Assembly: GCA_030674455.1 (NCBI GenBank)
Contig: JAUSGQ010000044.1
Span: 13,080 to 77,079 of the forward strand
Length of the DNA: 64,000 bases
Source: a bacterium
GTDB lineage: Bacteria; Patescibacteriota; Minisyncoccia; Phycocordibacterales; UBA2100
Direction of reading: 5' to 3'
Shown one piece after another: positions 7,360-59,808 of this stretch; position 1 is the first letter of the stretch; each line of letters opens with the position of its first letter. Position numbers and translations under genes: made by a program. Under the pieces are notes generated by a model. That model saw only the letters and a list, made by a program, of their open reading frames with translations. It did not search any database and had not been told where the DNA came from.

Positions 7360-7414
7360 TAAGGCAATCCTAGCACAATCACAAAATTAGGGCTAAAGCC
7401 CTGCAATGAATGCT

Positions 7415-7452
7415 GTCATCATGTAATGTCCGGCCGGACATTACATGATGAC
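7415..7452. repeat. 38-bp perfect palindrome GTCATCATGTAATGTCCGGCCGGACATTACATGATGAC
   Basis: Read directly from the sequence. Lies in the perM-glyS spacer with no U-tract after it. Confidence 0.7.
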
Positions 7453-7498
7453 ATGAAGATCCAATGTAATTCTTTCGACGTTATTCACTGCCTTGTTT

Positions 7499-8935: not shown

Positions 8936-9045
8936 GCATTAGTATTCTGTATTTTGTATTCCGTATTCAGTATATTGAACTGGAACCTTTGAATCTCCTA
9001 GTGTGGCCATACTGAATACTGTATACCGAATACCGCATACTGCAT
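8936..9045. repeat. large imperfect hairpin of GTATTCN heptad repeats (..GTATTCAGTAT ... ATACTGAATAC..) upstream of glyS
   Basis: Left arm agtattctgtattttgtattccgtattcagtat; right arm atactgaatactgtataccgaataccgcatactgca. Related copy at 36322..36396. Confidence 0.6.
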
Positions 9046-17934: not shown

Positions 17935-17985
17935 TTGTGGATTATGCGCTAAAGGCGAGTCGCGGTCGAGGCATAAGATATGCGT

Positions 17986-18062
17986 GTCATTGCGAGCTAT
18001 GCGAAGCAATCTAGAGGACTCTGTTGAATCATTCTGGATTGCTTCGCTGCGCTCGCAATGAC
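17986..18062. repeat. palindromic repeat family member a (GTCATTGCGAGCtatGCGAAGCAATC...GATTGCTTCGCtgcGCTCGCAATGAC)
   Basis: 77-bp near-perfect hairpin downstream of the 18081..18731 gene. Family members also at 26488, 30089, 40403 and a degenerate one at 31296. Confidence 0.7.
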
Positions 18063-18080
18063 AGCACGTCCGATTCGTTA

Positions 18081-18731
18081 TTATGACGTGATCCGTTTGA
18101 TTGCAGAAAAGGCGCGATCGATATCTTTGTCAGCAAAAATAGTGCTGAATTCTGTCCCGATAGACATGACTTCCACGAGACTGATGCCATCCTCCGCAAT
18201 CGCTTTCAAAATCGGGTAGTACAGCCCCGGCACATTTAAGCTCGGCTCCGGCAGGCGCATGGTAATGGCCGAGAGGCCGCCCACTCGTTTCAAATACTTC
18301 TGATTGTCGAACGATGCCACCACTTCTTTTTCAATCTCTTGGCTCACGATAAGAAGCGACTCGTAGAGTCCGCGTGAAAAGTTGAGGAACACGCCTTTTT
18401 TATTTTTTGCGATGCGCGAGATCTTTCCTAATACGCCGGATAGATCTGCCGAGTTCGGAAAAACGAACTGCACCAAATTCGAGCGCACCGTGATGTCGCT
18501 CATCTGTTTTAAAAATCGCGTTCCGTACGGAACAACTTTGTAATCTTTCGCTATCCGGTGGAGTGCCATCGCGATTGACCCTTCGGAAACTTCCTCAAGC
18601 AAGATTTTCTCCACTTCAGGTTTTATCCTGCGGGCGATTTGCGCGTTGTTGGCCAACCCCTCGGCCATCGCCTCGGCTAGGAAGGGCGACCGGTGGATTA
18701 TGCCTTCAACGACTTGGCTTACAGTTCTCAT
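18081..18731 (-). CDS. hypothetical protein (possible ACT-like regulatory domain at C-terminus)
   Basis: 216 aa, divergent from asd-lysC. The C-terminus ISLVEVMSIGTEFSTIFADKDIDRAFSAIKRI resembles aspartokinase ACT ends. Its start codon coincides with the end of MITE copy 1. Confidence 0.5.
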   Translation of the reverse strand: MRTVSQVVEGIIHRSPFLAEAMAEGLANNAQIARRIKPEVEKILLEEVSEGSIAMALHRIAKDYKVVPYGTRFLKQMSDITVRSNLVQFVFPNSADLSGVLGKISRIAKNKKGVFLNFSRGLYESLLIVSQEIEKEVVASFDNQKYLKRVGGLSAITMRLPEPSLNVPGLYYPILKAIAEDGISLVEVMSIGTEFSTIFADKDIDRAFSAIKRITS

Positions 18732-18871
18732 ACCCGGTTAGTACAATTTCGAATAATTCCTGCCGTAGATGCGCCAGCGAATATTTGGAAAGACTGCTTA
18801 ATCAATTTTCTTTTCATATGATGTTGATTTGTTCATAACAAGGCGATTCGAAATTGTCCTACCGGGCATAT
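18729..18871 (+). mobile_element. MITE copy 1 (gene-less derivative of the GIY-YIG TIR element) with CATA target-site duplication
   Basis: TIRs CCCGGTTAGTACAATTTCGAAT (18733..18754) and ATTCGAAATTGTCCTACCGGG (18846..18866). Flanking direct repeats CATA at 18729-18732 and 18867-18870. The interior keeps an MPGRTISNR... remnant of the GIY-YIG ORF. Confidence 0.8.
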
Positions 18872-18983
18872 CGTTACAATTATAACAAACTGGTACAATT
18901 CTGTCAATATTCTCAAGAAATTTGGCTAAAAACGCGTTCGGGCGCACTATTGCCTCTTCTTAATAAATAGTAGCTTAATTACT

Positions 18984-20089: not shown

Positions 20090-21445
20090 ATGGAAAAAAC
20101 TCCCAGCAACATCGTCATAAAATTCGGCGGCACTTCGGTCGCTACCAAAGAAGCGGTCCACGCAATCATCGCGATAGTTAAACGATACCGGAAATCGAAT
20201 CCCGTTGTCGTTGTTTCCGCCCTTCGCGGCGTAACCGAAGGATTGCTCGGGCTTTCCAAATGCCCTAAAGCCCAGCTTCCAGGCCGTATTTCGGCTCTGC
20301 GTGCCATGCATCAAAAATTGGCTTCCGACCTCTTCCCTACAGATAAAGACGTGGCCGAGGTGATGGCATATGTGGATGAGCAGCTCGCCGCAACGGAAAA
20401 AGTCGCGCGCAAAGGACGATTCAATCCCGCAGCTATGGACCAGCTCGTATCCGCCGGAGAAATCATGTCGTCATTTCTCATCGCAAAAGCGCTTGAGACG
20501 AACGACATCGCGTCAAGGCAGGTAGTCTCGACAGAAATAGTTGCTACCGACGACAATTTCATGCAGGCGGAATTCCAACCGAAAGAGACGGAGAAAAATG
20601 CGCGGAGAATTCTTGCCCCGCTTATTCGCCGCGGCATCGTTCCTGTCGTTACCGGATTCTTGGGTTCAACAAAAAAAGGACAGACGACCACGCTCGGACG
20701 CGGCGGCTCTGATTACTCCGCATCTATAATCGGGCGCTCGCTAGATGCAAAAGAAATACAAATTTGGACGGATGTCGACGGAATCTTTACGGCCGACCCG
20801 CGCGTCGTTAAAAACGCGCGCATTATTTCCGACATATCGTACCGCGAGGCGTCCGAAATGGCCGCGTTCGGAGCAAAAGTCTTGCACCCGAGAACCATCA
20901 GGCCGGCAGTCGAAAAAAACATTCCCGTGCGCGTACTCAACACTTTTAATCTTAAAGCTTCGGGAACCCTGGTGAGCCCGCGCTCAACCGGAACGGGACT
21001 CAAAGCGATAGCGTTCAAAAAAAACGTTGTGCTCGTCAACGTTTACTCGGATTCAATGCTTTTCTCGCGCGGATTTCTCGCCCGCATGTTCGAGGTATTC
21101 GCACGGCATCAGATCTCAATCGATTTGGTCTCGGTCTCCGAGGTAAGCGTTTCTGTAACTTTAGATAGCAACAACGGACACCTTGATGCCGCGGTAAAAG
21201 AACTGGAAGCGTTCTCCAAAGTGAGCGTACACAAAGATAGCTTCGGGATGATATCGCTCATAGGAGAGGGAATCGCCTCTGCGCAGGATATAATGACGAA
21301 TGTATCCGCACAGTTTAGCCGTCATCGAATTCCCCTGCGGATGATCTCTATGGGAGCGTCTGACATCAATATCAGTTTGGTAATACCCGCGGCAGATGTC
21401 GTGCGCGCGGCCAACATGGTTCACGATGAATTCTTGAGAAACTAA
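20090..21445 (+). CDS. lysC: aspartate kinase
   Basis: VIKFGGTSV.. N-terminus and C-terminal ACT domains. Confidence 0.9.
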   Translation: MEKTPSNIVIKFGGTSVATKEAVHAIIAIVKRYRKSNPVVVVSALRGVTEGLLGLSKCPKAQLPGRISALRAMHQKLASDLFPTDKDVAEVMAYVDEQLAATEKVARKGRFNPAAMDQLVSAGEIMSSFLIAKALETNDIASRQVVSTEIVATDDNFMQAEFQPKETEKNARRILAPLIRRGIVPVVTGFLGSTKKGQTTTLGRGGSDYSASIIGRSLDAKEIQIWTDVDGIFTADPRVVKNARIISDISYREASEMAAFGAKVLHPRTIRPAVEKNIPVRVLNTFNLKASGTLVSPRSTGTGLKAIAFKKNVVLVNVYSDSMLFSRGFLARMFEVFARHQISIDLVSVSEVSVSVTLDSNNGHLDAAVKELEAFSKVSVHKDSFGMISLIGEGIASAQDIMTNVSAQFSRHRIPLRMISMGASDINISLVIPAADVVRAANMVHDEFLRN

Positions 21446-21448
21446 TTG

Positions 21449-21588
21449 TATGCCCGGTAGGACAATTTCGAATCGCCTCATATGACTATTCGCCATCACA
21501 TGAAAAGAAGATTGTTGGAGCGGTCGTTACAGATGTCCGCAGGTGTAACTACGGCAGAAATTATTCGAAATTGTACTAACCGGGTATG
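21449..21588 (-). mobile_element. MITE copy 2 (inverted relative to copy 1) with TATG target-site duplication; exactly fills the lysC-dapB spacer
   Basis: TIRs CCCGGTAGGACAATTTCGAAT (21453..21473) and ATTCGAAATTGTACTAACCGGG (21563..21584). TATG at 21449-21452 and 21585-21588; the latter contains the dapB ATG. Confidence 0.8.
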
Positions 21589-22326
21589 AACATTGCACTG
21601 CTAGGACATGGAAATATGGGGCTGGAGATCGAACGGCTTGTTCGGGCTTCCGGCACGCACACAGTTTCCGTAATAGGAATGGAGGAGCCAAGCGGCGCGA
21701 TAGATACAGCTGGCCTCAAAAACGCCGAAGTTGTAATCGATTTTACGTCGCCGGAAATAGTGATGAACGATATTCGCACCGTGGCAAAAGAGGGGAAAAA
21801 TCTCGTCGTGGGAACTACGGGATGGCAGGAACACCTGCCGGAGGTGGAAAAAATCGTTCGCGAGAGCGGAATTGGCCTGATTTACGGCCAGAATTTCTCG
21901 ATAGGCGCGAATATCTTTTTCCGCGCGGTAGCTCATGCGACAAAACTATTCTCTGCATTTAAAGACTACGATGTGTACGGTTTGGAAATTCACCATGCCG
22001 GGAAAAAAGACAGTCCATCGGGGACTGCCCTGCGGACCGCGCAAGAAATTCTGCAGAACTCAAGCACCAAAAAAATCCTAACGACAGGTAAACTCGACAG
22101 AAAAGTACGTCCGGAAGAACTGCACTTCGCGTCCGTGCGAGGCGGCGTGAATCCCGGATTCCACGAAGTGGTTTTCGACAGCCCCGCCGATGCGGTTACT
22201 ATTTCTCATTCCGCGCACAACAGGGAGGGATTTGCGCAGGGCGCTATCCTTGCGGCAGAATTCATTCAAGGGAAAAAAGGCCTGTTTACATTTGATGACG
22301 TGATGAAAGCTCATGGCATAAAATAA
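21586..22326 (+). CDS. dapB: 4-hydroxy-tetrahydrodipicolinate reductase
   Basis: NAD-binding N-terminus (IALLGHGNMG) and HHAGKKDSPSGTA motif. Confidence 0.9.
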   Translation: MNIALLGHGNMGLEIERLVRASGTHTVSVIGMEEPSGAIDTAGLKNAEVVIDFTSPEIVMNDIRTVAKEGKNLVVGTTGWQEHLPEVEKIVRESGIGLIYGQNFSIGANIFFRAVAHATKLFSAFKDYDVYGLEIHHAGKKDSPSGTALRTAQEILQNSSTKKILTTGKLDRKVRPEELHFASVRGGVNPGFHEVVFDSPADAVTISHSAHNREGFAQGAILAAEFIQGKKGLFTFDDVMKAHGIK

Positions 22327-23415: not shown

Positions 23416-24612
23416 ATGGCAAAAATTAATTCGCGGTACCAAAAAGTCTCGCAGGGATATTTCTCCACCGAGATTGCAAAACGGGCCAAACCGTTCTTAG
23501 ATTCGCACCCCGGCGCGGAGATTTACCGGCTCGGAATCGGCAACACGACAGAAGCAATCGTCCCTTCTGTCATAGAGGGCCTTCGCAAAGGAGTCGAAAA
23601 ATTGGCCAAAACAGAGACTTATACGGGGTACGGAGATGAGCAGGGCGATTCACGACTGCGCGAAGCAATTTCCAAATGGTACGCAAAACGAGCGGTGAGC
23701 GTAGAGCCCTCGGCAGTTTTTGTAAGCGACGGCGCAAAGAGCGACTGTGCCAATATTCCCTCTATATTTTCCGATGACGCCGTCGTGGCCGTGAGCGACC
23801 CCGGATACCCGGTACATCGGGAAGCCGCTGTGATATCAGGAAAGAAAGTTGTCTCTATGGAATGCCTGGAGAAAAATAACTTCATGCCGACGATGCCCGA
23901 GCGTGCTGACCTGCTATACATTTGCAGCCCTAATAATCCGACTGGGACGGTCGCCACAAGAAAACAATTAGAGTCGTTCGTCGCATACGCAAGAAAAAAT
24001 AAAGCGATAATAATTTTTGACGCCGCCTATTCTGAATACGTTAGCGACCAAGCACTACCGCGCAGCATCTACGAGATAGAGGGCGCGAAATCGTGCGCCA
24101 TAGAAATACAGAGTCTTTCTAAAGCCGCCGGCTTCACGGGAGTGCGCTTGGGTTGGACTATCGTGCCGAAAGAGCTGCAAACCGAAGACGGCGCGGAAGG
24201 AATGTTGAATAGGTTCTGGTCGAGGAGGCAGACCACGATGTTTAACGGCGCTTCAAACATCGCGCAGGAAGGAGGACTTGCCGTTCTCTCCCCAAAAGGA
24301 CAGCGCGAGACGCACGAACAAGTCGCTTACTACATGGAAAACGCCCGCATCATACGAGAGGGACTTAGCGCCGCAAAAATGACGATACATGGAGGCGTAG
24401 ATGCTCCATACATCTGGTTGCAATGCCCTCGAGGCCTTTCCTCGTGGGAATTCTTCGACGAGCTACTCACGAAAGCACATGTTATTGCAACGCCGGGGAT
24501 AGTTTTCGGCAAAGGCGGCGAAGGCTACATGCGCATATCTGCATTCGGCCACCGAGAAGATGTAGAGAAGGCAGTACATTCAATACGGAAAAACTTTGGT
24601 ACTATTGCTTAA
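23416..24612 (+). CDS. dapL: LL-diaminopimelate aminotransferase
   Basis: 398 aa fold-type-I aminotransferase. The N-terminus INSRYQKVSQGYFSTEIAKR resembles DapL ([20 protein letters not shown]). Operon context with dapA/dapB/lysA. Confidence 0.75.
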   Translation: MAKINSRYQKVSQGYFSTEIAKRAKPFLDSHPGAEIYRLGIGNTTEAIVPSVIEGLRKGVEKLAKTETYTGYGDEQGDSRLREAISKWYAKRAVSVEPSAVFVSDGAKSDCANIPSIFSDDAVVAVSDPGYPVHREAAVISGKKVVSMECLEKNNFMPTMPERADLLYICSPNNPTGTVATRKQLESFVAYARKNKAIIIFDAAYSEYVSDQALPRSIYEIEGAKSCAIEIQSLSKAAGFTGVRLGWTIVPKELQTEDGAEGMLNRFWSRRQTTMFNGASNIAQEGGLAVLSPKGQRETHEQVAYYMENARIIREGLSAAKMTIHGGVDAPYIWLQCPRGLSSWEFFDELLTKAHVIATPGIVFGKGGEGYMRISAFGHREDVEKAVHSIRKNFGTIA

Positions 24613-26487: not shown

Positions 26488-26565
26488 GTCATTGCGAGCA
26501 ACGCGAAGCAATCCAGTGGATTGTACAAATTACTCTAGTTTGCTTCGCTAAGCTCGCAAAGACGG
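26488..26565. repeat. palindromic repeat family member b (GTCATTGCGAGCaacGCGAAGCAATCC...TTTGCTTCGCtaaGCTCGCAAAGAC)
   Basis: Directly downstream of rplK. Confidence 0.65.
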
Positions 26566-31570: not shown

Positions 31571-32266
31571 ATGCGTCTTTTAATCGACGAGGATGAGGAG
31601 TCATTGGCAAAAAACCTGAAGCGGTTGCTTGAACTCAAGGGTTTCGCCGTCGATTGGCTCACAACCGCCGAAAAGGCGCGAACGCGGATAATGCTTTATA
31701 GGAATGAATATGGGGCAATACTTTTGGACCTTACACTTCCCGGAATGAGCGGCACGGAACTTACAAAGAGCGTACGGGCCGAAGGCGTGACGACACCCAT
31801 AATAATCCTGACTGGAAAAAGCGAAACGCAATATAAGATAGAGCTCTTAAACAGCGGCGCCGACGACTACGTCGTGAAGCCCTTTTCGTCTGACGAACTG
31901 ATAGCGAGAATCTCTTCGGTAGTGCGGCGACCCGTCCAGGAAATCCCTATCGTGCGAACTGTAGGCCAGCTTTCCATAGATTCGTCAGCGCGTCGCGTTA
32001 CTGCGAGCGGCACGCACTTAACGCTAACGCTCAAAGAGTATTCGCTTCTGGAATGTTTTATGCGCCGACCCAACGAAATCTTAACGCGCGAGGATCTCTC
32101 GAATCAGATATGGGACTTTAATTCCCTCACGATGAGCAACGTACTGGACGTACATATGAAGAACCTGCGCAAAAAAATAAGTTCGGCAGCCGGCAATGCC
32201 GCGAGGTTTGAGACCGTCCGCGGCGTGGGGTATCGCCTCGTCTTATCGCAGGACGAATATGCTTAA
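31571..32266 (+). CDS. OmpR-family response regulator
   Basis: Receiver plus winged-helix (..RFETVRGVGYRL). Ends in ATGCTTAA overlapping the kinase start. Confidence 0.85.
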   Translation: MRLLIDEDEESLAKNLKRLLELKGFAVDWLTTAEKARTRIMLYRNEYGAILLDLTLPGMSGTELTKSVRAEGVTTPIIILTGKSETQYKIELLNSGADDYVVKPFSSDELIARISSVVRRPVQEIPIVRTVGQLSIDSSARRVTASGTHLTLTLKEYSLLECFMRRPNEILTREDLSNQIWDFNSLTMSNVLDVHMKNLRKKISSAAGNAARFETVRGVGYRLVLSQDEYA

Positions 32267-36321: not shown

Positions 36322-36396
36322 TATTCTGTATATAGTATTCAGTATGCTTTTTCTGCATTTATACTGAATACACGATACTGTATATACACGATACTT
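36322..36396. repeat. second GTATTCAGTAT...ATACTGAATAC heptad hairpin, upstream of the ECF sigma gene
   Basis: ggtattctgtatatagtattcagtat...atactgaatacacgatactgtatatacacgatact. Confidence 0.6.
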
Positions 36397-43728: not shown

Positions 43729-43744
43729 CGATGTCAACAATCCC

Positions 43745-43775
43745 TCACGGCCGCGAGGGATTGTTGACACGAGAG
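43745..43775 (+). repeat. direct repeat, right copy, palindromic (caacaatccCTCACGGCCGCGagggattgttgaca)
   Basis: Perfect 13-bp inverted arms around CACGGCCGCG. Same CTCACGGCCG core as the upstream copy. Confidence 0.55.
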
Positions 43776-43801: not shown

Positions 43802-46180
43802 TTATGCTTTGTTATCCCTTTTGGCAAGATAGGACGCAAGGCCGCCCGGGCGCGAATATGCAAATACATTTTCGATTCCTGCATCTCTGGCAAGTACAAT
43901 CACTGCTTCAATTAGGCGCTGAGAGACTGGCGCATCGTCGTGAATGCGCACATCACCTTTAGGCTCCGGGTATTGCAGAAGCATGTTGTATCCGAGAGAA
44001 CTTTTGTCTTCCGGCCGGCCATTCGGGATGAGACCGACGAAATGTGCGCCTTCCGAAAGCCCCGCCTTCGGCTTTTGGTGGAATTTAAAAACGGCATCCT
44101 GCGGAACGTACGCGAGCACTTCTTTTTCCGAGGGCCGTCTACAGGTGCCGATGCCTATCCCATCGGCCATTTTAGAAACTTCCGGCACCGGCCTCGGCCT
44201 ATAATCAGCACTGCAGATTGAAATGCAGACGATATTTTTTCCCTGCGGAGCTAATACTTTCGGCGTAAGGAGTTCATCGTAGGTGATGCCGAGCAATTCT
44301 TTGCCCGAGAGGTCGGTGCGCACGAGCGCGATCTGCCCGGCGATGTGTTCGGCACTTGGCCGATGGGTTGGCATCGGCACCTGTCGACGGTCCGCGGCAA
44401 GAATAATGACCTGCTTCGGGATATTTTTTTCATACGCGGTCTTTTCCGCCATGAGCGGCTCCCAGCAGTGGTTGTAAAGTTCGTACGATTCCTTAACCCA
44501 TCGCGAATACCGATGAAGCACCGTGAAGCGATACTCCGGAGTTTTAAACAATCCATAGATCGATTCAAAGCTCTCGTATGGAAGCTGCTGTTTAAGGATT
44601 GTACGCTGAACTTTTCCCGTCGAGGTCGTCGGGAGTTCCGCGACAGTCATCGAAGTGATGTACTTCGGCGTTTCGTATGCGCTCAAGTACGGCGTACCGC
44701 ATAAAAGCGCCAATTTGAGCCGTCTTTTGGCGGCATCAGTATCAACTCCCTCTTTCCACGAAATCACGGCGCCGCATTCCTCGCCGTAGCGCTCATCGGC
44801 TACCGACACAACGTGAACCTGCGCGATGTCGGAAGATATTTTCTTGAGAGAATTTTCCACGGCAATCGGCGAAATGTTGATGCCGCCTTTGATGATAATT
44901 TCGCGCTTGCGCCCTTTGAGATAAAAATACGGCCTCCCCTCCTCAATGCGGAAATAGCCGATGTCGCCCGTCAAAAAATATCCGCGTGCCTCTGTAGGCA
45001 GGTCGCAAAACGCAGGCTCGCCGCCGACATACCCTTCCATCAAGGCTTCGCCTTTGACGATGATTTCTCCTTCTTCTCCCTCCCCCTGGAATTTCCCATT
45101 CTCATCTGCAATGCGCACATCCGCCCACGACATCGGAGCGCCGATCGAGTTTTCTTCCACGAGACGTTCATACAACTCTTCCGATAGTCCCATCGGCACG
45201 CCCGTCACGCGAAGCGCAGTTTCCGTCTGCCCGTATCCCTGATAGAGCGAGATGCCGAATTTCTTTCTGAATTCTTGCACCGTGCTGGCGATGACGGGAG
45301 CCGAACCTATCTGTATGCGCGAGAGAACGACATTTTTTCTCACCGCTGCGTATTCTTCCTCGCGGTTCAACTGGTCAAAGAGAATTGACTGCACGATAGA
45401 TGTAATCGTCGCGGAGGTCGCGGCTATCTGCTGCCAGAAGTGCGAGTTAGAGTATGCTGGTGGAATCGCGATGGAGCCGCCGGCAAGCAGCATCGCGAGG
45501 CAAAAGGTCGTTGAGTTAATGTGGTGCAGCGGGAGATTGACCAGGAACCTGTCTGTCTCGGTAATTCGAAGCCACTCGCCAATAGCCTCCGCATTGACGA
45601 TGAGATTCTTGAGCGAGAGCTTCGCACCCTTCGGATGCGCCGTCGTGCCGGAAGTAAATAAGACGAGAGCTTGATGCGAAAGCCCCGTTTCCCAAACAAC
45701 CTCTGTATCCTGCTTTTTAGGAAAGTCTGAAAATTCTTTGATATTCACTCCGCTTAAATGCGATTTATCTGCGTCTTTGAGCAAGCCTTTCTGTGCTACT
45801 AGTACTTTCGCACCGTTCAGTTTGATTTTGTATGCGTGCTGTTCGCCCGTGTCGCGTTTCGTGTCGAGCGGAATAGTAATGATTCCGGTACTCCACGCCG
45901 CCCACGAGATTATGAGAAGTTCGGCAGAATTCTTGAACGCGAGCGCGGCCCTGTCCCCTTTGCGCAGGCCCAATTCAGACAGATAGGAGGCAGCTGATTC
46001 CACTTCTTTAGCCAGCTCCCCAAAATTTATTTCACGCAGGATTTTCCCGGTCTCATCGCAACTCACAAGAGCTGCGCGAGAAGGATGCATTTGAGCAAGA
46101 TGTGCGATATGTTCGTGCAGACTTTTGATGCGTTTTTCGTGCATGTGGCTTACTTTACTCTTGAGGCCTCTTGCGCGCAA
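43802..46180 (-). CDS. acyl-AMP ligase (AMP-binding superfamily) fused to a ~280-aa C-terminal domain of unknown function
   Basis: 792 aa. TSGTTAHPKG, GYGQTE and ..TSTGKVQR.. adenylation motifs occupy the first ~510 aa. The remainder has no recognisable motif. Confidence 0.7.
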   Translation of the reverse strand: MRARGLKSKVSHMHEKRIKSLHEHIAHLAQMHPSRAALVSCDETGKILREINFGELAKEVESAASYLSELGLRKGDRAALAFKNSAELLIISWAAWSTGIITIPLDTKRDTGEQHAYKIKLNGAKVLVAQKGLLKDADKSHLSGVNIKEFSDFPKKQDTEVVWETGLSHQALVLFTSGTTAHPKGAKLSLKNLIVNAEAIGEWLRITETDRFLVNLPLHHINSTTFCLAMLLAGGSIAIPPAYSNSHFWQQIAATSATITSIVQSILFDQLNREEEYAAVRKNVVLSRIQIGSAPVIASTVQEFRKKFGISLYQGYGQTETALRVTGVPMGLSEELYERLVEENSIGAPMSWADVRIADENGKFQGEGEEGEIIVKGEALMEGYVGGEPAFCDLPTEARGYFLTGDIGYFRIEEGRPYFYLKGRKREIIIKGGINISPIAVENSLKKISSDIAQVHVVSVADERYGEECGAVISWKEGVDTDAAKRRLKLALLCGTPYLSAYETPKYITSMTVAELPTTSTGKVQRTILKQQLPYESFESIYGLFKTPEYRFTVLHRYSRWVKESYELYNHCWEPLMAEKTAYEKNIPKQVIILAADRRQVPMPTHRPSAEHIAGQIALVRTDLSGKELLGITYDELLTPKVLAPQGKNIVCISICSADYRPRPVPEVSKMADGIGIGTCRRPSEKEVLAYVPQDAVFKFHQKPKAGLSEGAHFVGLIPNGRPEDKSSLGYNMLLQYPEPKGDVRIHDDAPVSQRLIEAVIVLARDAGIENVFAYSRPGGLASYLAKRDNKA

Positions 46181-46865
46181 TTATCAGAAGACCGGTTCCG
46201 AATGGCAACGAAATGAATCTTATGAGCATAGATTCAATTTTTACAACAGCGAAAAAAATCGCGTTGAGTAAGCGCGGCATCCTCAAAGAGCTGTCGCCTG
46301 ACCTTCCCAAGAGGCGCATGAGCGCGGCAGGAATGAAAAGCAGCATGTTCCAGTAACTCGCGTATTCAACTTCAAATCCGGCGTCATTCAATACAGCGCG
46401 CATTGAGGCTTTCGTATACCTTCGGAAATGATGGTGGTTAACATCATGAATGCCCCAGAGAAATTGGAACGCGGGCACTGTTATTGCGAGGTGGCCGCCG
46501 CTCTTTAGCGCCCCGTGGGCTTTTACCAGAAACTCCCTGTCATGCTCGATGTGTTCAACAACATCAAATAGCCCTATCAAATCGTACGCTCGTCCCAGTG
46601 CCTCGCTTTCAGTTGATAATGCACGCAGATAGCCGCGCTTGCTGGCGGCTTCTCGCGCTTCCGCATCCGGCTCGTAGGCATATATATTCTTTCCGATGCG
46701 CGAAAGGTCTTTATACATTCCTCCGTAACCCGCGCCGAAATCAAGAACATCTTCTGCCCGCTTCGCGCCGCACTTCGCAAGCCCGGCGTGAATTGCCGCG
46801 GCACGGCCTCGGTACCACCAGGATTTCTCCATGTCACTCAAAAGTTTAAAAGCGTTTCTCTCCAT
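46155..46865 (-). CDS. class I SAM-dependent methyltransferase
   Basis: VLDFGAGYGG motif I. The start ATG lies inside the left terminus of the GIY-YIG element. Confidence 0.8.
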   Translation of the reverse strand: MERNAFKLLSDMEKSWWYRGRAAAIHAGLAKCGAKRAEDVLDFGAGYGGMYKDLSRIGKNIYAYEPDAEAREAASKRGYLRALSTESEALGRAYDLIGLFDVVEHIEHDREFLVKAHGALKSGGHLAITVPAFQFLWGIHDVNHHHFRRYTKASMRAVLNDAGFEVEYASYWNMLLFIPAALMRLLGRSGDSSLRMPRLLNAIFFAVVKIESMLIRFISLPFGTGLLIIARKRPQE

Positions 46866-47172
46866 ACCCGGTTAGTACAATTTCGAATTATTCCGTCCGT
46901 AATAATCTTTCAATCGCTTTGCAAGAAAGCGACGGCCTCCCGTGGTTTTGAAATATTGTTCTCGACGTTTTGCGTCAACCAGAGAACGACATGCTTCGTA
47001 GTACGCAAGTATAAAAGGCCGTCGTGGTGCTGTGGCAAAACTTTTACCCTGCTGGTGTTGATCCATGCGCTTTCGCAGATCACTCGTATATCCAATATAT
47101 TGCTTATAGTCTTTCATACTCTGCAAGACATAGACATAATAAAAGCGATTCGAAATTGTCCTACCGGGCATA
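46863..47172 (-). mobile_element. TIR-bounded GIY-YIG element (autonomous-looking copy): 22-bp terminal inverted repeats, 4-bp CATA target-site duplication, single 99-aa GIY-YIG gene
   Basis: TIR-L CCCGGTTAGTACAATTTCGAAT (46867..46888), TIR-R ATTCGAAATTGTCCTACCGGG (47148..47168). CATA at 46863-46866 and 47169-47172. The first 8 codons of the GIY-YIG ORF (MPGRTISN) are encoded by the TIR itself. Confidence 0.8.
46872..47171 (-). CDS. GIY-YIG nuclease family protein (YhbQ/UPF0213-like)
   Basis: YYVYVLQS..YIGYTSDLRKRMDQHQQGKS..RRPFILAYYEAC..AKRREQYFK matches the GIY-YIG motifs. Confidence 0.8.
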   Translation of the reverse strand: MPGRTISNRFYYVYVLQSMKDYKQYIGYTSDLRKRMDQHQQGKSFATAPRRPFILAYYEACRSLVDAKRREQYFKTTGGRRFLAKRLKDYYGRNNSKLY

Positions 47173-47174
47173 TA

Positions 47175-47876
47175 TTATTTTGAAATTACGTTTCTAATTC
47201 TAAACATGGCCCGTAAAGCACCGACACTGTCACGCAAAAGAACAAGTTTGCTTTTCCTGTCTTCGAACCGGTGTTCATTCCAATGAACCGGCACTTCTTT
47301 GATGCTAAGCCCTGCACGTTCAGCGCGCGCAAGAAATTCCATATCAAGGAACCATCCCTTTTCCGTACAGCCCGCAAGGATTTTTCTCCCTCGCGCATTC
47401 ATTATCTTCAGCCCGCACTGGGTATCTTCCACACTCCTCACCCCTACTATCATCTTTCTCAATATGTTGAATGCCTTGGATGACAGCGTTCGAAATGCGC
47501 CGCGCTTAACCATCGTGGTTTCGATAAGGCGCGAACCGATTGCAATATCAAAACCGCTCTTCTCTACCAACGGGAGAAGGTTCAGGATGTCTTCGGGGTC
47601 TGCGGAAAGGTCGGCATCAATAAATCCGAAAAAATCAGCGCCAGAATGGCGCGCGGCAGCGGCGACAGCCGCTCCCTTTCCCCGTATAGGGATTGATAAG
47701 ACGGATACGCCTGGAATGCCCTTTGCGGCGCTTGCCGTACCGTCCGTTGAATCATTGTCGGCAACAATGACAGCAACATCCTCGCCTGTTTTTTGAAGTA
47801 CGCGCAGTACCGCGCCCGCAGATTCCGCAATAATGCGCTCTTCGTTGTAAGCGGGAATGCAGATTTCAATGGCCAT
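47175..47876 (-). CDS. family 2 glycosyltransferase (polyprenyl-phosphate sugar synthase-like)
   Basis: CIPAYNEERIIAESA..VADNDSTDGT..IDADL; DPM1-like GT2. Confidence 0.85.
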   Translation of the reverse strand: MAIEICIPAYNEERIIAESAGAVLRVLQKTGEDVAVIVADNDSTDGTASAAKGIPGVSVLSIPIRGKGAAVAAAARHSGADFFGFIDADLSADPEDILNLLPLVEKSGFDIAIGSRLIETTMVKRGAFRTLSSKAFNILRKMIVGVRSVEDTQCGLKIMNARGRKILAGCTEKGWFLDMEFLARAERAGLSIKEVPVHWNEHRFEDRKSKLVLLRDSVGALRAMFRIRNVISK

Positions 47877-57528: not shown

Positions 57529-58479
57529 TTAAGCTTTTTTAGGCCAGCGCGCAGGGTCCACTTCTCCTGGATCTTTAATAGCCAGAGCTTTGAGGGCGTC
57601 GACCGCGTCTTTCGAGAGCGGGCCTTTTTCCATCGCGGCACATGCGGCCTCAACGTGCGCAACATTTGACGTTCCGATGAGAGACACCGCTATCGCCGAC
57701 TCCGACAGCGTATAACGAAGGGCGAGTTCCGGCAATGTTATACCCGCATCATCCGCTATTTTCTCCGCAACCGCGACCGCCCACTTCAGTTTGACAAGAT
57801 TTTCTGGAAGATGATTTGCCTTACCTGCAAACGCCCCTTTCAAGTACACGGAGCGATTGACGACGCCTACTCCCCGTTCCACAGCTCTCGGAAATATTCG
57901 CGCAGACATGCGCTGGTCGGCAATGCTGAATGCGACCTGCACAACATCAGCCCAATTGCGTTTCATCAAGGCGAGCGGCGGCTCTTCTCCGCGGGTGGAA
58001 GCGCCGGAAAAACGGATTTTCCCCTCCGTCTTCAGCTTCCCAATAATCTCTTCCAAAATCCCTTCTTCAATCTGCTCTGCGGAGGGTCCGTGCAAAAGAA
58101 GTAGCGGCAGTATTTCAATTCCCAATGTTCTTAAACTTCCTTCCACCTGTTCAAAAATCTTCTTCTCCATCTGCGCCGGGGTAAGGACTTCTCCATCCTC
58201 AAGGAATTTTGCGCACTTGGTGCATACGACGACGCGCGGGTCTTTTAATATGCCGGATTTCCCTATCCTATCCTCCGCAAGGCCGTAGTAATTTGCGGTA
58301 TCAAAGAAAGTAACCCCAAGTTCCACAGCAGTTTTCAAAAGTTTTATTGCGTCGGCCTCGCTCGGAAGCTCCGGCACTCCGAGTCCGTAGGCAAATCCGA
58401 TTTCCGCGGTTCCGAGTCCGAGACGCGACACCGCAAGGCCGGTTTTTCCCAGTGTTCCCTGCGTACGTGCGACTGTCAT
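57529..58479 (-). CDS. aldo/keto reductase
   Basis: GLGTAEIG, ..FFDTANYYG... Start trimmed to MTVARTQ (ATG 58477-58479). Confidence 0.8.
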   Translation of the reverse strand: MTVARTQGTLGKTGLAVSRLGLGTAEIGFAYGLGVPELPSEADAIKLLKTAVELGVTFFDTANYYGLAEDRIGKSGILKDPRVVVCTKCAKFLEDGEVLTPAQMEKKIFEQVEGSLRTLGIEILPLLLLHGPSAEQIEEGILEEIIGKLKTEGKIRFSGASTRGEEPPLALMKRNWADVVQVAFSIADQRMSARIFPRAVERGVGVVNRSVYLKGAFAGKANHLPENLVKLKWAVAVAEKIADDAGITLPELALRYTLSESAIAVSLIGTSNVAHVEAACAAMEKGPLSKDAVDALKALAIKDPGEVDPARWPKKA

Positions 58480-58506
58480 TGGCCTATCATAGAAGAAAAC
58501 GCGCCA

Positions 58507-59808
58507 ATGACAAACCGGAATGAATACCGTACAATCGCCCATATGGCGATTAAAACAAAATATCGAAACATCAGGGCCGATTTCAAACTGCGCGAAACTC
58601 CGCTCTTTAAGAAGCTCGTCTCGCTTGAGCCTGCTTCAACCAAAAACACGCTGCCAATCACGTGGGCCAAGGCGAAAGATTTCTCTGTCTGGGACGACAA
58701 GGGCAACAAATGGATAGATATGACCTCCGGCATCTTCGTCGCAAACGCAGGACACGCTAATCCCAAAATAAAAGCGGCTATCAAAAAACAGCTTGATAGC
58801 GATCTTCTGTTCGCATACAACTACCCGACAGAAATAAAAAAGAAATTTATAGAGAAACTGCTTGCCATTTCACCAAAACATTTCAACGCGACAACACTGC
58901 TTAACTCTGGCTCGGAGGCAATGGACACCGCCTACAAGCTCATCAAACTCTATGGCAATAAAACGGGGAAGAAGTATGTCGTGAGCTTCACGGGCAACTA
59001 CCATGGCCGCGGGCTAAGCAACGAATTGATTTCCGGCGGACCGAAAAGCGCAGCGTGGGCGGGCGTTACGGATTCGGACATCGTATTCTTGGATTTTCCT
59101 TACGATATGAAAGCAGAGTTTGATTACAAGAAACTTCCGCAAGGCACGGATATCGCTGGGTTCGTCATAGAGACATTTCAGGGCTGGGGGTGCTGGATGT
59201 ACCCGAAAAAATTCCTGCGCGACTTATACACCTTTGCCAAAAAGAACAAGGCGTTGGTCTGCTTCGATGAAATGCAGTCGGGCTTTTACCGCATGGGCCC
59301 GCTTTACGGATACATGACCTACGGCGATTTCAAGCCGGATATTTTGGGTCTGGGAAAAGGCATCTCCTCTTCTCTTCCGCTGTCCGCCGTACTGTCTAGG
59401 AAAGAATTGTTTGATATCGACAAGAATGCCGACCTTCACGGCACGCACTCCGGAAATGCCTTATGCGTAGCGGCCGGACTCGCTAACTTGGAATTCTTGA
59501 GTTCGCACGAGGAAATCGCGCGGCGCAAAAAGACTTCGGCAATTTTTGAAAAAGAATTGCTGGCGCTGGAAAAGTCCCCGCTCGTTCGCCAAGTCAATGT
59601 AAGCGGGCTCATCGCCGGCATTATTTTTGAGGACAAAGAAGATTCAATGGCTATCGTGCGCGAGTGCGTTAATCGCGGCGTACTCGCGATGCTCATTCCG
59701 CGCAACTCCATCAAGCTAGCGCCTCCGATGACTATCACGCCACAGGCGCTCACGGAAGCCATGGGTGTCCTTCGCGAAGCGATAGCGAAACGCGAAGCGA
59801 ACGCCTAA
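58507..59808 (+). CDS. class-III PLP aminotransferase
   Basis: GSEAMDTAYKLIK.., DEMQSGFYRMG and GKGISSSLP motifs. Start could be 58543. Confidence 0.8.
   Translation: MTNRNEYRTIAHMAIKTKYRNIRADFKLRETPLFKKLVSLEPASTKNTLPITWAKAKDFSVWDDKGNKWIDMTSGIFVANAGHANPKIKAAIKKQLDSDLLFAYNYPTEIKKKFIEKLLAISPKHFNATTLLNSGSEAMDTAYKLIKLYGNKTGKKYVVSFTGNYHGRGLSNELISGGPKSAAWAGVTDSDIVFLDFPYDMKAEFDYKKLPQGTDIAGFVIETFQGWGCWMYPKKFLRDLYTFAKKNKALVCFDEMQSGFYRMGPLYGYMTYGDFKPDILGLGKGISSSLPLSAVLSRKELFDIDKNADLHGTHSGNALCVAAGLANLEFLSSHEEIARRKKTSAIFEKELLALEKSPLVRQVNVSGLIAGIIFEDKEDSMAIVRECVNRGVLAMLIPRNSIKLAPPMTITPQALTEAMGVLREAIAKREANA

Follow-up and report, generated by a model that had tools for sequence, protein, structure and literature searches.

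How does a unit of 302 bp, whose only gene encodes a nuclease of 99 amino acids (aa), come to sit on the start codon of an unrelated gene, and is it the nuclease that moves it? The question is raised by a locus on contig JAUSGQ010000044.1, from a Kaiserbacteria-like genome of the Patescibacteria, of which we analyzed a stretch of 64,000 nucleotides (nt), hereafter the window. The element carries its GIY-YIG nuclease gene between the two arms of an inverted repeat, is flanked by a 4-nt duplication, and belongs to a family of short and long copies that, where their flanks are complete, nearly always occupy the start codon of a host gene. Purifying selection acts on the nuclease, on the arms, and on translatability. 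We lean toward the view that these are small selfish DNA elements of Patescibacteria that combine a GIY-YIG gene held within its arms, residence on start codons, translational coupling, and mobility driven by the nuclease. A bolder proposal, less likely in our view but with a substantial chance of being right, is that they form a new class of prokaryotic DNA transposon, with a bare SLX1/Ssn-like GIY-YIG nuclease as its only enzyme, that homes actively to start codons and relies on termination-reinitiation.

Anatomy of the long element

The autonomous, or long, element measures 302 bp from arm to arm (46867-47168, minus strand), and the same size class of 300-303 bp is found at locus L033 and at seven metagenome loci. 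Its orientation runs from E5 (CCCGGYAGGACAATTTCGAAT) to E3 (ATTCGAAATTGTACTARCCGGG). The 5' arm (E5), CCCGGTAGGACAATTTCGAAT at 47148-47168 on the minus strand, codes for PGRTISN and is almost invariant across 131 copies; the 3' arm (E3), ATTCGAAATTGTACTAACCGGG at 46867-46888 on the same strand, codes for NSKLY and a TAA stop and is one base longer than E5. Read on the plus strand, the arms with one bulged base are CCCGGTTAGTACAATTTCGAAT and ATTCGAAATTGTCCTACCGGG. Over 21 nt (46868-46888 and 47148-47168) they are 86% complementary when compared ungapped, and 20 of the 21 positions pair once a one-base bulge is allowed. An arm 21-mer with up to three mismatches occurs six times in the window, that is, as three pairs, compared with 0.00 in shuffled sequences.

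The motif CATA is present at both ends of the element on the plus strand (46863-46866 and 47169-47172), which on the strand of the element reads TATG. The upstream TATG (47169-47172, minus strand) provides the ATG of the nuclease open reading frame (ORF; 46872-47171, minus strand), which encodes a single-domain GIY-YIG protein (Pfam PF01541). This TATG lies 3 nt past the stop of a GT2 glycosyltransferase gene (47175-47876), which places the long copy at an operon junction. In the downstream TATG (46863-46866, minus strand), the ATG (46865..46863) serves as the start of the host gene, which encodes a class I methyltransferase of 236 aa (46155-46865, minus strand; Pfam PF13489, 1e-17).

The nuclease gene and the arms are interlocked. 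Codons 1-8 (MPGRTISN) lie within one arm and NSKLY plus the stop within the other, and the extra base of E3, seen as the bulge, generates the in-frame stop codon. Variants with TAA, TAG, and TGA occur at this position, and a stop is kept in every one of them. The GIY-YIG ORF is the sole sizeable ORF inside the long element; it matched no Pfam or NCBIfam family besides GIY-YIG, no DDE, HUH, serine, or tyrosine recombinase was found in the element, and no promoter-like site was seen on its own strand inside the long copy.

A preliminary description of this locus, made from the letters alone, had already proposed a 302-bp unit with terminal inverted repeats (TIRs), a flanking CATA/CATA duplication, a lone GIY-YIG ORF with its first eight codons in the repeat, and no recombinase of a recognized insertion sequence (IS) type. 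All of this is borne out, with arms of 21 and 22 nt and with the last codons and stop in the other arm as well. What was overlooked is the central feature: the host gene starts at the ATG of the duplication and runs in the same direction as the element.

The copies within the window

All three copies in the window read xATG|E5…E3|TATG, with the second ATG being the start of a co-oriented host gene, namely the methyltransferase (46865), a gene for a 216-aa protein (18731), and dapB (21586).

The first short derivative, of 134 bp, lies at 18733-18866 on the minus strand between TATG flanks at 18867-18870 and 18729-18732, and its mini-ORFs begin at the upstream ATG and end in a TGA overlapping the start codon of the 216-aa gene (18081-18731, minus strand). 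Upstream is a sigma-70 promoter that agrees with the consensus at 12 of 12 positions (18879-18907, minus strand), a perfect TTGACA-17-TATAAT with a TG extension. The end of its -10 box is 9 nt from the copy's upstream ATG, which would make the transcript near-leaderless. A -10-like box was also seen at the same distance at several other insertion sites in related genomes.

The second short derivative, of 132 bp, lies at 21453-21584 on the plus strand between TATG flanks at 21449-21452 and 21585-21588. Its first ORF reads MPGRTISNRLI*, and its second runs from an overlapping ATGA to a TGA that overlaps the ATG of dapB (21586-22326, plus strand); the upstream gene, aspartate kinase, ends at 21445. 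The preliminary description had called these two copies gene-less. They are indeed present, with the same arms and the same duplication, but they are not free of coding sequence, since both keep translatable mini-ORFs.

Census of the family

Copies were collected by searching assemblies with an arm 16-mer, followed by pairing of E5 with E3, and a metagenome scan was added; the pairing search covered arm pairs 400-600 nt apart or less. The 16-mer occurs in dozens of copies in assemblies of Candidatus Kaiserbacteria and other Patescibacteria, other matches being due to chance. Genome contigs gave 50 paired copies, of which 48 measure 131-136 bp and two 302/303 bp, and metagenomes gave 108 further non-redundant copies (98 short, seven long, a single one of 163 bp, and two in which no 5' arm could be detected). 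The preliminary description had recommended tabulating the repeat beyond the window, and doing so gives a total of about 160 paired copies, all of 130-137 or 300-303 bp apart from the single one of 163 bp, with TATG/TATG the commonest pair of flanks. Within the range of the pairing search, none of them carries a transposase gene.

The internal-deletion derivative of about 133 bp outnumbers the long form by roughly 14 to 1. Short copies have the first ~30 nt and the last ~40-60 nt in common with the long copy and fall into one size class, which argues that they descend from one spreading deletion derivative and not from independent decay. Their arm variants agree with those of the long copy in the same genome. 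The sampled parts of MFKT01, a related genome, hold at least 14 copies, and the 64-kb window holds three. In the case of P0013, the 24 contigs represent one locus (upstream of rnc) across many samples and not multiple insertions. The search offered no sign of carriage by phages, as the seven matches on viral contigs were chance 16-mers without a CCCGG terminus or a partner arm.

Other subfamilies with different arms, CCCAGCAGTGAAATGTGCC…/…GGCACATTCTACTGACTGGG and …ACAATTTGGCAT/ATGCCAAATTGT…, were noticed on start codons in the same genomes, at L039 (reverse strand, upstream of an scpB ortholog), L030 (4140-4272), and L054 (6448-6579).

Target duplication and residence on start codons

About 97% of the 131 copies with full flanks sit on a host start codon. 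In all 49 copies of the genome set that have an ATG after E3, a host ORF begins at it, and all copies but one are co-oriented with the host gene. The genes occupied include rplB, rplV, rplX, rplO, rpsK, ftsZ, topA, mraY, and those for aminoacyl-tRNA synthetases.

The flanks, given as upstream/downstream, are TATG/TATG in 80 of the 131 copies and CATG/TATG in 25. A further 12 have ATGA/YATG, a 5-nt YATGA duplication in which the TGA of the upstream gene overlaps the ATG, and the remaining 14 are other pairs, singletons for the most part but including ATGG/YATG (two copies). Three copies that lie off an ATG are still duplicated, two of them perfectly (TGTA/TGTA and GTAA/GTAA) and one as TGTT/TGTC. 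A C before the downstream ATG is always accompanied by a C upstream. In the inverted copy L087 a T precedes both ATGs, which shows that the T comes from the target and not from the element. The base preceding the upstream ATG is never A; in a hairpin, the partner of this base would be the G of the host ATG. When the element and one TATG are removed, the sequence is colinear with natural sites in other genomes, which have a single TATG, and no gap is left at the junction.

We also considered a reading without duplication, in which the element owns the T or the ATG and inserts 3' of an ATG in the manner of IS200/IS605. It was rejected on the evidence of L087, the three duplications off ATG, the 12 YATGA copies, and the C/C rule.

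Could this placement be what is left once harmful insertions are lost? The window contains 917 YATG sites on both strands, of which 48 are gene starts and about 102 are wholly intergenic, and gene starts make up ~32% of the YATG sites at which an insertion would not disrupt coding sequence. Random insertion into YATG followed by loss of disruptive copies therefore predicts about one third of copies at starts, compared with the ~97% observed. One possibility is that the mechanism recognizes more than YATG; the other is strong counter-selection of untranslated copies, for example, where an unmelted 25-bp RNA stem blocks or destabilizes operon transcripts.

Translatability of the short copies

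The short copies come in lengths that differ by single nucleotides, and each length has its own way of remaining translatable. In the 134-nt copies, one ORF of 43 codons runs from the upstream ATG to the arm stop 6 nt before the host ATG. In the 133-nt copies, the TGA of a first ORF (MPGRTISNRLV) overlaps the ATG of a second, which ends at the same arm stop, whereas in the 132-nt copies the TGA of the second ORF overlaps the host ATG. A stop-free path for the ribosome is present in 43 of 47 genome copies, compared with 9.1 expected when the variable center is shuffled (maximum 20 in 5,000 simulations), and in 50 of 69 independent metagenome copies, compared with 10.5 expected, figures that overstate independence given that the copies are related by descent. 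Of 30 copies in which the +1 frame alone remains open at the 3' end, 26 have A as the host base at +4, which creates a TGA; among the other 43 copies, 10 have A. The central peptide is not conserved, and selection thus acts on reading through and not on the product.

Folding of the arms with their flanks gives a stem of roughly 25 bp in which both ATGs are buried, and E3 contains no motif resembling a Shine-Dalgarno sequence. Since the short copies keep a stop-free path between the upstream and the host ATGs, the simplest reading of these sequences is that the host ATG would be reached by termination-reinitiation, that is, by translational coupling.

Evidence of mobility

Orthologous genes with 65-80% protein identity include cases in which the site is filled in one genome but empty in the other. 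Between the window and MFKT01 the pattern is reciprocal: the gene whose start codon is at 23416-23418 (plus strand) is empty here, and its ortholog in MFKT01 (L020, minus strand, 7387) is filled by a short copy, whereas the gene starting at 18731 is filled here and its L020 ortholog (65% aa identity) has an empty site. A third case is the response-regulator gene whose start codon at 31571-31573 (plus strand) is empty and whose ortholog in L035 (71% aa identity) is filled by a short copy.

MFKT01 and the related genome MFKV01 have different insertion sets. At the start codon of scpB they even carry different subfamilies, with unrelated arms and the same termini and layout. In L258 (2034-2554), a long GIY-YIG copy, a TATG, a short copy of ~200 nt with slightly different arms, a second TATG, and the host gene follow one another head-to-tail on one start codon. 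Other insertions are old and common to species, as with L026/L100 (93% aa identity) and L048/L099 (80%).

The preliminary description had held that the family has moved, a view that would fall if the repeat were an ancestral palindrome present at the same sites in all relatives. The reciprocal filled and empty orthologous sites contradict the latter, and the reconstructed empty sites are colinear with natural TATG sites. The empty sites it had suggested looking for in relatives do exist, between species. A search of metagenomes for the exact empty site of the dapB locus gave no match. Looking up the exact proteins of the window's host genes gave either no record or contigs that end inside an arm: in L128 and L129 (Logan assembly SRR13727527), which carry the exact methyltransferase and 216-aa genes, the contigs end 26-27 nt upstream of the host ATG, which indicates that the element repeat breaks short-read assemblies.

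The nuclease and its arms under selection

The HMM search proposed at the outset places the 99-aa protein in PF01541 (residues 11-79, E=3e-14, a score of 53.5 bits where the cut-off is 22.6). Among 37 family members, the catalytic residues Y14, Y25, R35, and E71, together with G27, show no variation, and conservation of H39 is at least 90%. The AF2 model (pLDDT 82.9) has the alpha/beta fold of GIY-YIG proteins, with the UPF0213 protein 1zg2, Slx1, and I-TevI as best PDB matches; 1zg2 (E=1.3e-5, 34% identity) and 1ywl (E=1.2e-4) belong to matches at 30-34% identity, and Slx1 gave a query TM-score of ~0.6. The homing endonuclease family TIGR01453 scored 18.4 bits against a cut-off of 56. When homologs are clustered at 50% identity, the family comprises 4,996 clusters at E<=1e-3 and 734 at E<=1e-10.

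The similarity to UPF0213 is at the level of related proteins and does not separate UPF0213 from the neighboring Ssn clade. Ssn proteins are single-domain GIY-YIG nucleases of ~94 aa that cut single-stranded DNA beside hairpin repeats (Chenal et al., Nat Commun 2025, PMC11893778). A plasmid search for Ssn-type relatives returned only B. subtilis yazA (40% identity, E=8e-4), and a PDB search by fold and sequence returned no Ssn structure among its entries.

Homologs at 58-68% identity in other Patescibacteria share this layout, ATG|CCCRG-arm … arm-CYGGG|(T)ATG, where the last ATG belongs to the following gene, and their arms differ by compensatory changes. Four of six such distant copies lie directly on a host start (rplF-rplR in a Sungbacteria genome, yidC-jag, before folD, and one more), and the fifth is the L258 copy, in tandem on TATG with a short element. 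The sixth, L257, lies in an A-rich spacer away from start codons and uses an internal ATG.

The arm-encoded N-terminus, MP[GS]xTxSN, is conserved throughout the family. Between long copies dN/dS (nonsynonymous to synonymous change) is 0.05-0.2 and synonymous differences (pS) reach 0.5-0.8 per site, and yet the arms are almost identical, so they must be constrained as nucleic acid beyond their coding role. Of the 21 arm positions, 20 are Watson-Crick pairs in no fewer than 127 of 131 copies. At stem position 6, 79 copies have T-A, 51 have C-G, and one is mismatched, and 128 of the 131 retain both the one-base bulge and a G·A mismatch.

A proposed life cycle

How might such an element live and move? 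In the scheme that we favor, the autonomous form of ~302 bp is one gene for a nuclease of 93-99 aa, of the SLX1/UPF0213/Ssn-like branch, and both forms reside in a duplication of 4 nt (sometimes 5 nt) that is YATG with few exceptions, this being the host start codon. The upstream ATG would keep the promoter and initiation signals of the host and would start either the nuclease ORF or one to two remnant mini-ORFs. Translation would terminate either within the 3' arm, at a stop 6 nt short of the second ATG, or at a TGA overlapping that ATG, and ribosomes would re-initiate there, leaving the host protein unaltered. Their passage would also melt the mRNA stem of ~25 bp formed by the paired arms. 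Strong selection would purge copies that are not translated through, and some target preference may contribute.

We infer that the nuclease is the mobilizing enzyme. By analogy with Ssn nucleases, which bind and cut beside the hairpin repeats of their own genes, it may recognize the arms, paired or single, and cut at the boundary of arm and flank as well as at YATG targets, with host ligation or repair finishing the move. Two joining schemes may be envisaged. In the first, element and target would both have 4-nt TATG cohesive ends sealed by host ligase; as the overhang is not palindromic, it would set the orientation and permit tandem stacking. In the second, blunt excision would be combined with a staggered target cut and fill-in, and orientation would arise through selection. 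The near-invariant TATG fits the first scheme, whereas the duplications off ATG suit the second better. In an excised circle, the E3|E5 junction would read …AACCGGG[TATG]CCCGGTAGG….

Several points weigh against this account. The copies in which the first base of the duplication is mismatched (25, always C on the left and T on the right) are not predicted by a simple staggered-cut model, and this one-directional mismatch fits neither joining scheme simply. A hydrolytic nuclease alone cannot join strands, we know of no GIY-YIG enzyme that catalyzes strand transfer, and the element contains no ligase or recombinase. No strain-level polymorphism or excision product was found, and the empty sites all come from species with 65-80% protein identity. 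The descent of copies from one another, noted above for the ribosome-path statistics, counts here too. A strictly lagging-strand, single-strand route like that of IS200/IS605 is made unlikely by the duplication together with an orientation that follows genes. Lastly, the SRM pattern, HGTCWYN(0-2)YYVSBRHN(0-5)WNVSBRGN(0-2)RNCYNB, given as the consensus of Ssn repeats (PMC11893778), has 0 matches in the 64-kb window, compared with 0.6 in shuffled sequences.

Two further ideas were set aside. The copies at 18.7 and 21.4 kb, only 2.7 kb apart, point in opposite directions, each following its gene, and a replication-strand bias was rejected for this reason. Cruciform resolution as a route of excision was dropped by reasoning, as it yields hairpin-capped breaks and not excision.

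Alternative explanations

An alternative that we regard as unlikely is that of a domesticated Ssn-type system, in which a site-specific nuclease of single-stranded DNA serves the host, for example, by restricting or shaping the recombination of DNA that these DNA-scavenging bacteria take up, as proposed for NTS/SsnA in Neisseria, with the arm pairs as recognition sites that spread in the past and are now maintained. The precedent fits, with GIY-YIG proteins of ~94 aa, hairpin repeats of their own in hundreds of copies, and an effect on transformation (PMC11893778). So do the strong purifying selection on the nuclease, the usual finding of one long copy per genome, and the old insertions common to L026/L100 and L048/L099. 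Against it, the insertion sets differ reciprocally between related genomes, different subfamilies occupy the same site, copies are stacked in tandem, and the deletion derivative is found at more than 100 different loci, all of which argues for continuing spread. A host role would leave both the start-codon placement and the selection for translatability unexplained, and the SRM motif, in its published form, is absent from the window.

Slightly less credible to us is that the family consists of ordinary MITEs (miniature transposable elements with inverted repeats) moved in trans by a conventional transposase (e.g., a DDE enzyme), the GIY-YIG gene being a passenger or an addiction module. TIRs with a 4-nt duplication are the signature of DDE cut-and-paste, the perfect duplications off ATG are what a staggered cut with fill-in predicts, and GIY-YIG chemistry is hydrolytic only. 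However, the ~160 copies within the pairing range are only of ~133 or ~302 bp (plus the one of 163 bp), and no transposase was found in any of them. A captured passenger would hardly have its start and stop within the arms, accompanied by compensatory changes, in an arrangement that persists down to 58% identity, nor does this explanation sit well with arm variants of short copies that match the long copy of the same genome.

We give little credence to spread of the homing type, in which an empty YATG start is cut and repair copies an occupied locus, primed by short homology near the ATG. GIY-YIG enzymes are classic homing endonucleases, and such a route would explain the fixed target, the precise junctions, and an increase in copies without excision. 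It needs extended flanking homology, though, which is absent between different host genes; the protein, at 99 aa and one domain, has no DNA-binding domain like that of I-TevI; and neither the target duplication nor the 4-nt duplications off ATG are signatures of homing.

That the repeat is immobile, an ancestral regulatory leader or translational attenuator hairpin common to many genes, would suit its placement at gene starts and the stable stem that sequesters both ATGs, but it is highly improbable given the reciprocal presence and absence at orthologous sites, the same deletion derivative on functionally unrelated genes, a nuclease ORF under purifying selection, and the lack of any Rfam match.

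Implications for annotation and beyond

If the nuclease does mobilize the element, then at ~300 bp and one 99-aa protein this would be the smallest autonomous DNA element described, and another class of nuclease would join those engaged in transposition with TIRs and target duplications. It would also put to a direct test the idea, raised by the authors of the Ssn work, that units of the form repeat-ssn-repeat are mobile now or once were (PMC11893778).

In genomes that are ~90% coding, the start position may offer a parasite a route of survival, as expression there is free and that of the host gene can be restored by coupling. This lifestyle extends to ribosomal-protein genes, ftsZ, and topA. 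In genomes of the candidate phyla radiation (CPR), such copies break short-read assemblies and create spurious small ORFs and mis-called starts, affecting several per cent of genes. The nucleases and arm pairs, which co-vary across lineages, are candidates for sequence- or structure-specific nucleases.

Other repeats in the window

The whole 64-kb window gave no Rfam family at threshold (no known ribozyme, intron, or leader) and no tRNA. Long hairpins of the form TGTCA…TGACA occur at 7414-7453, 43732-43769, 58474-58512, 17985-18063, and 26488-26563; one is a perfect 20+20 palindrome, and two have 31-nt arms, GTCATTGCGAGC…GCTCGCAATGAC. The GTCAT at their 5' side is reminiscent of the oriented 5' portion of the Neisseria NTS, but the SRM pattern does not fit them; they may represent terminators or else a second family of repeats. 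A 36-nt inverted repeat (44125-44160/44365-44400; 83% complementary, 204 nt apart) lies in the C-terminal part of a 792-aa AMP-binding-enzyme ORF (43802-46180, minus strand); it may be an in-frame palindromic insertion and was not repeated in any locus compared. Intergenic inverted repeats rich in GTATTC/GAATAC are found at 8941-9041 and 36322-36384, with a similar run before a gene in L039.

Comparison with known systems

The closest published system is the Ssn family, which we compared by its description and the SRM pattern. Its repeats (NTS/SRM) flank the nuclease genes and are dispersed in hundreds of copies, and the system has an effect on natural transformation; the authors themselves note an IS-like repeat-gene-repeat layout and a parallel with IS200/IS605 and REP elements (PMC11893778). 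The present elements agree with this description in having a single-domain GIY-YIG protein of ~94-99 aa, repeats that bracket its gene and are dispersed genome-wide, and co-variation of nuclease and repeat between lineages. They differ in that a single long-range inverted repeat supplies both flanking repeats as its arms, in place of two self-contained hairpins of 20-50 nt, that the arms overlap the ends of the ORF, and that there is a 4-nt duplication, a defined deletion derivative, translatable copies on start codons, and a patescibacterial host. The accessible text of the Ssn paper reports no target duplications, deletion derivatives, overlap of repeat and ORF, start-codon residence, or Patescibacteria (PMC11893778). 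A literature search on GIY-YIG proteins together with MITEs, TIRs and target duplications, Patescibacteria, or start codons turned up nothing closer. The preliminary description had spoken of an undescribed class. This stands for the start-codon, duplication, and derivative features, which are absent from that accessible text, but it has to be qualified in that a related system with an IS-like layout had already been published (PMC11893778).

The elements resemble bacterial MITEs in their TIRs, short duplication, many copies, non-autonomous deletion derivatives, and a transcript able to form a long hairpin. Bacterial MITEs such as Correia/NEMIS, ERIC, and RUP have TIRs, a short duplication, high copy number, internal-deletion derivatives, and transcripts that can form long hairpins. 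Unlike these and the IS elements, the present family has a GIY-YIG protein as its only enzyme, and not a DDE, HUH, serine, or tyrosine recombinase, and combines a start-codon target with fixed orientation. An autonomous element of ~302 bp is, to our knowledge, also far smaller than any IS. Measured by what defines an IS or MITE, TIRs, a target duplication, presence and absence between species, and internally deleted copies were all found, and a transposase of a recognized class (DDE, DEDD, HUH, serine, or tyrosine) was not.

Rickettsia palindromic elements, which Ogata et al. reportedly described in 2000, are said to be of ~100-150 bp, to lie in frame within coding sequences, and to become part of the protein; we know of no cognate enzyme. 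In both cases palindromic repeats in reduced genomes are tolerated in expressed genes through compatibility with translation, the difference being that the present element stays a separate upstream ORF with its own stop, leaving the host protein unchanged.

IS200/IS605, REP/RAYT, and IStrons rely on HUH Y1 transposases with covalent intermediates, have subterminal hairpins and a one-strand bias, and make no duplication. Very small size, dependence on hairpins, and a fixed short target are common to them and to the present elements, as is a strategy that keeps insertion silent, namely splicing in IStrons and, as we propose, translational coupling here. Unlike IS200/IS605, the elements have no HUH protein, possess terminal inverted repeats and a 4-nt duplication, and take their orientation from genes.

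Among GIY-YIG enzymes, homing endonucleases (I-TevI and the Seg proteins) have a separate DNA-binding domain and act on one conserved allele with long flanking homology. They too place a GIY-YIG core in a selfish element that spares the function of the host gene, whereas here the nuclease is a bare catalytic domain of 99 aa and the element occupies dozens of unrelated host genes. SLX1, a structure-selective enzyme for branched and stem-loop DNA, depends on SLX4 and a RING domain, and UPF0213 genes (E. coli yhbQ and B. subtilis yazA) are, as far as we know, single-copy and housekeeping-type, with no flanking repeats reported. UPF0213/YhbQ and SLX1 provide the best matches in sequence and fold; the present nuclease differs from SLX1 in its single domain and from UPF0213 in that its gene is bracketed by repeat arms. 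Taking these comparisons together, we class the family as an Ssn-like nuclease-plus-repeat selfish element with IS/MITE architecture.

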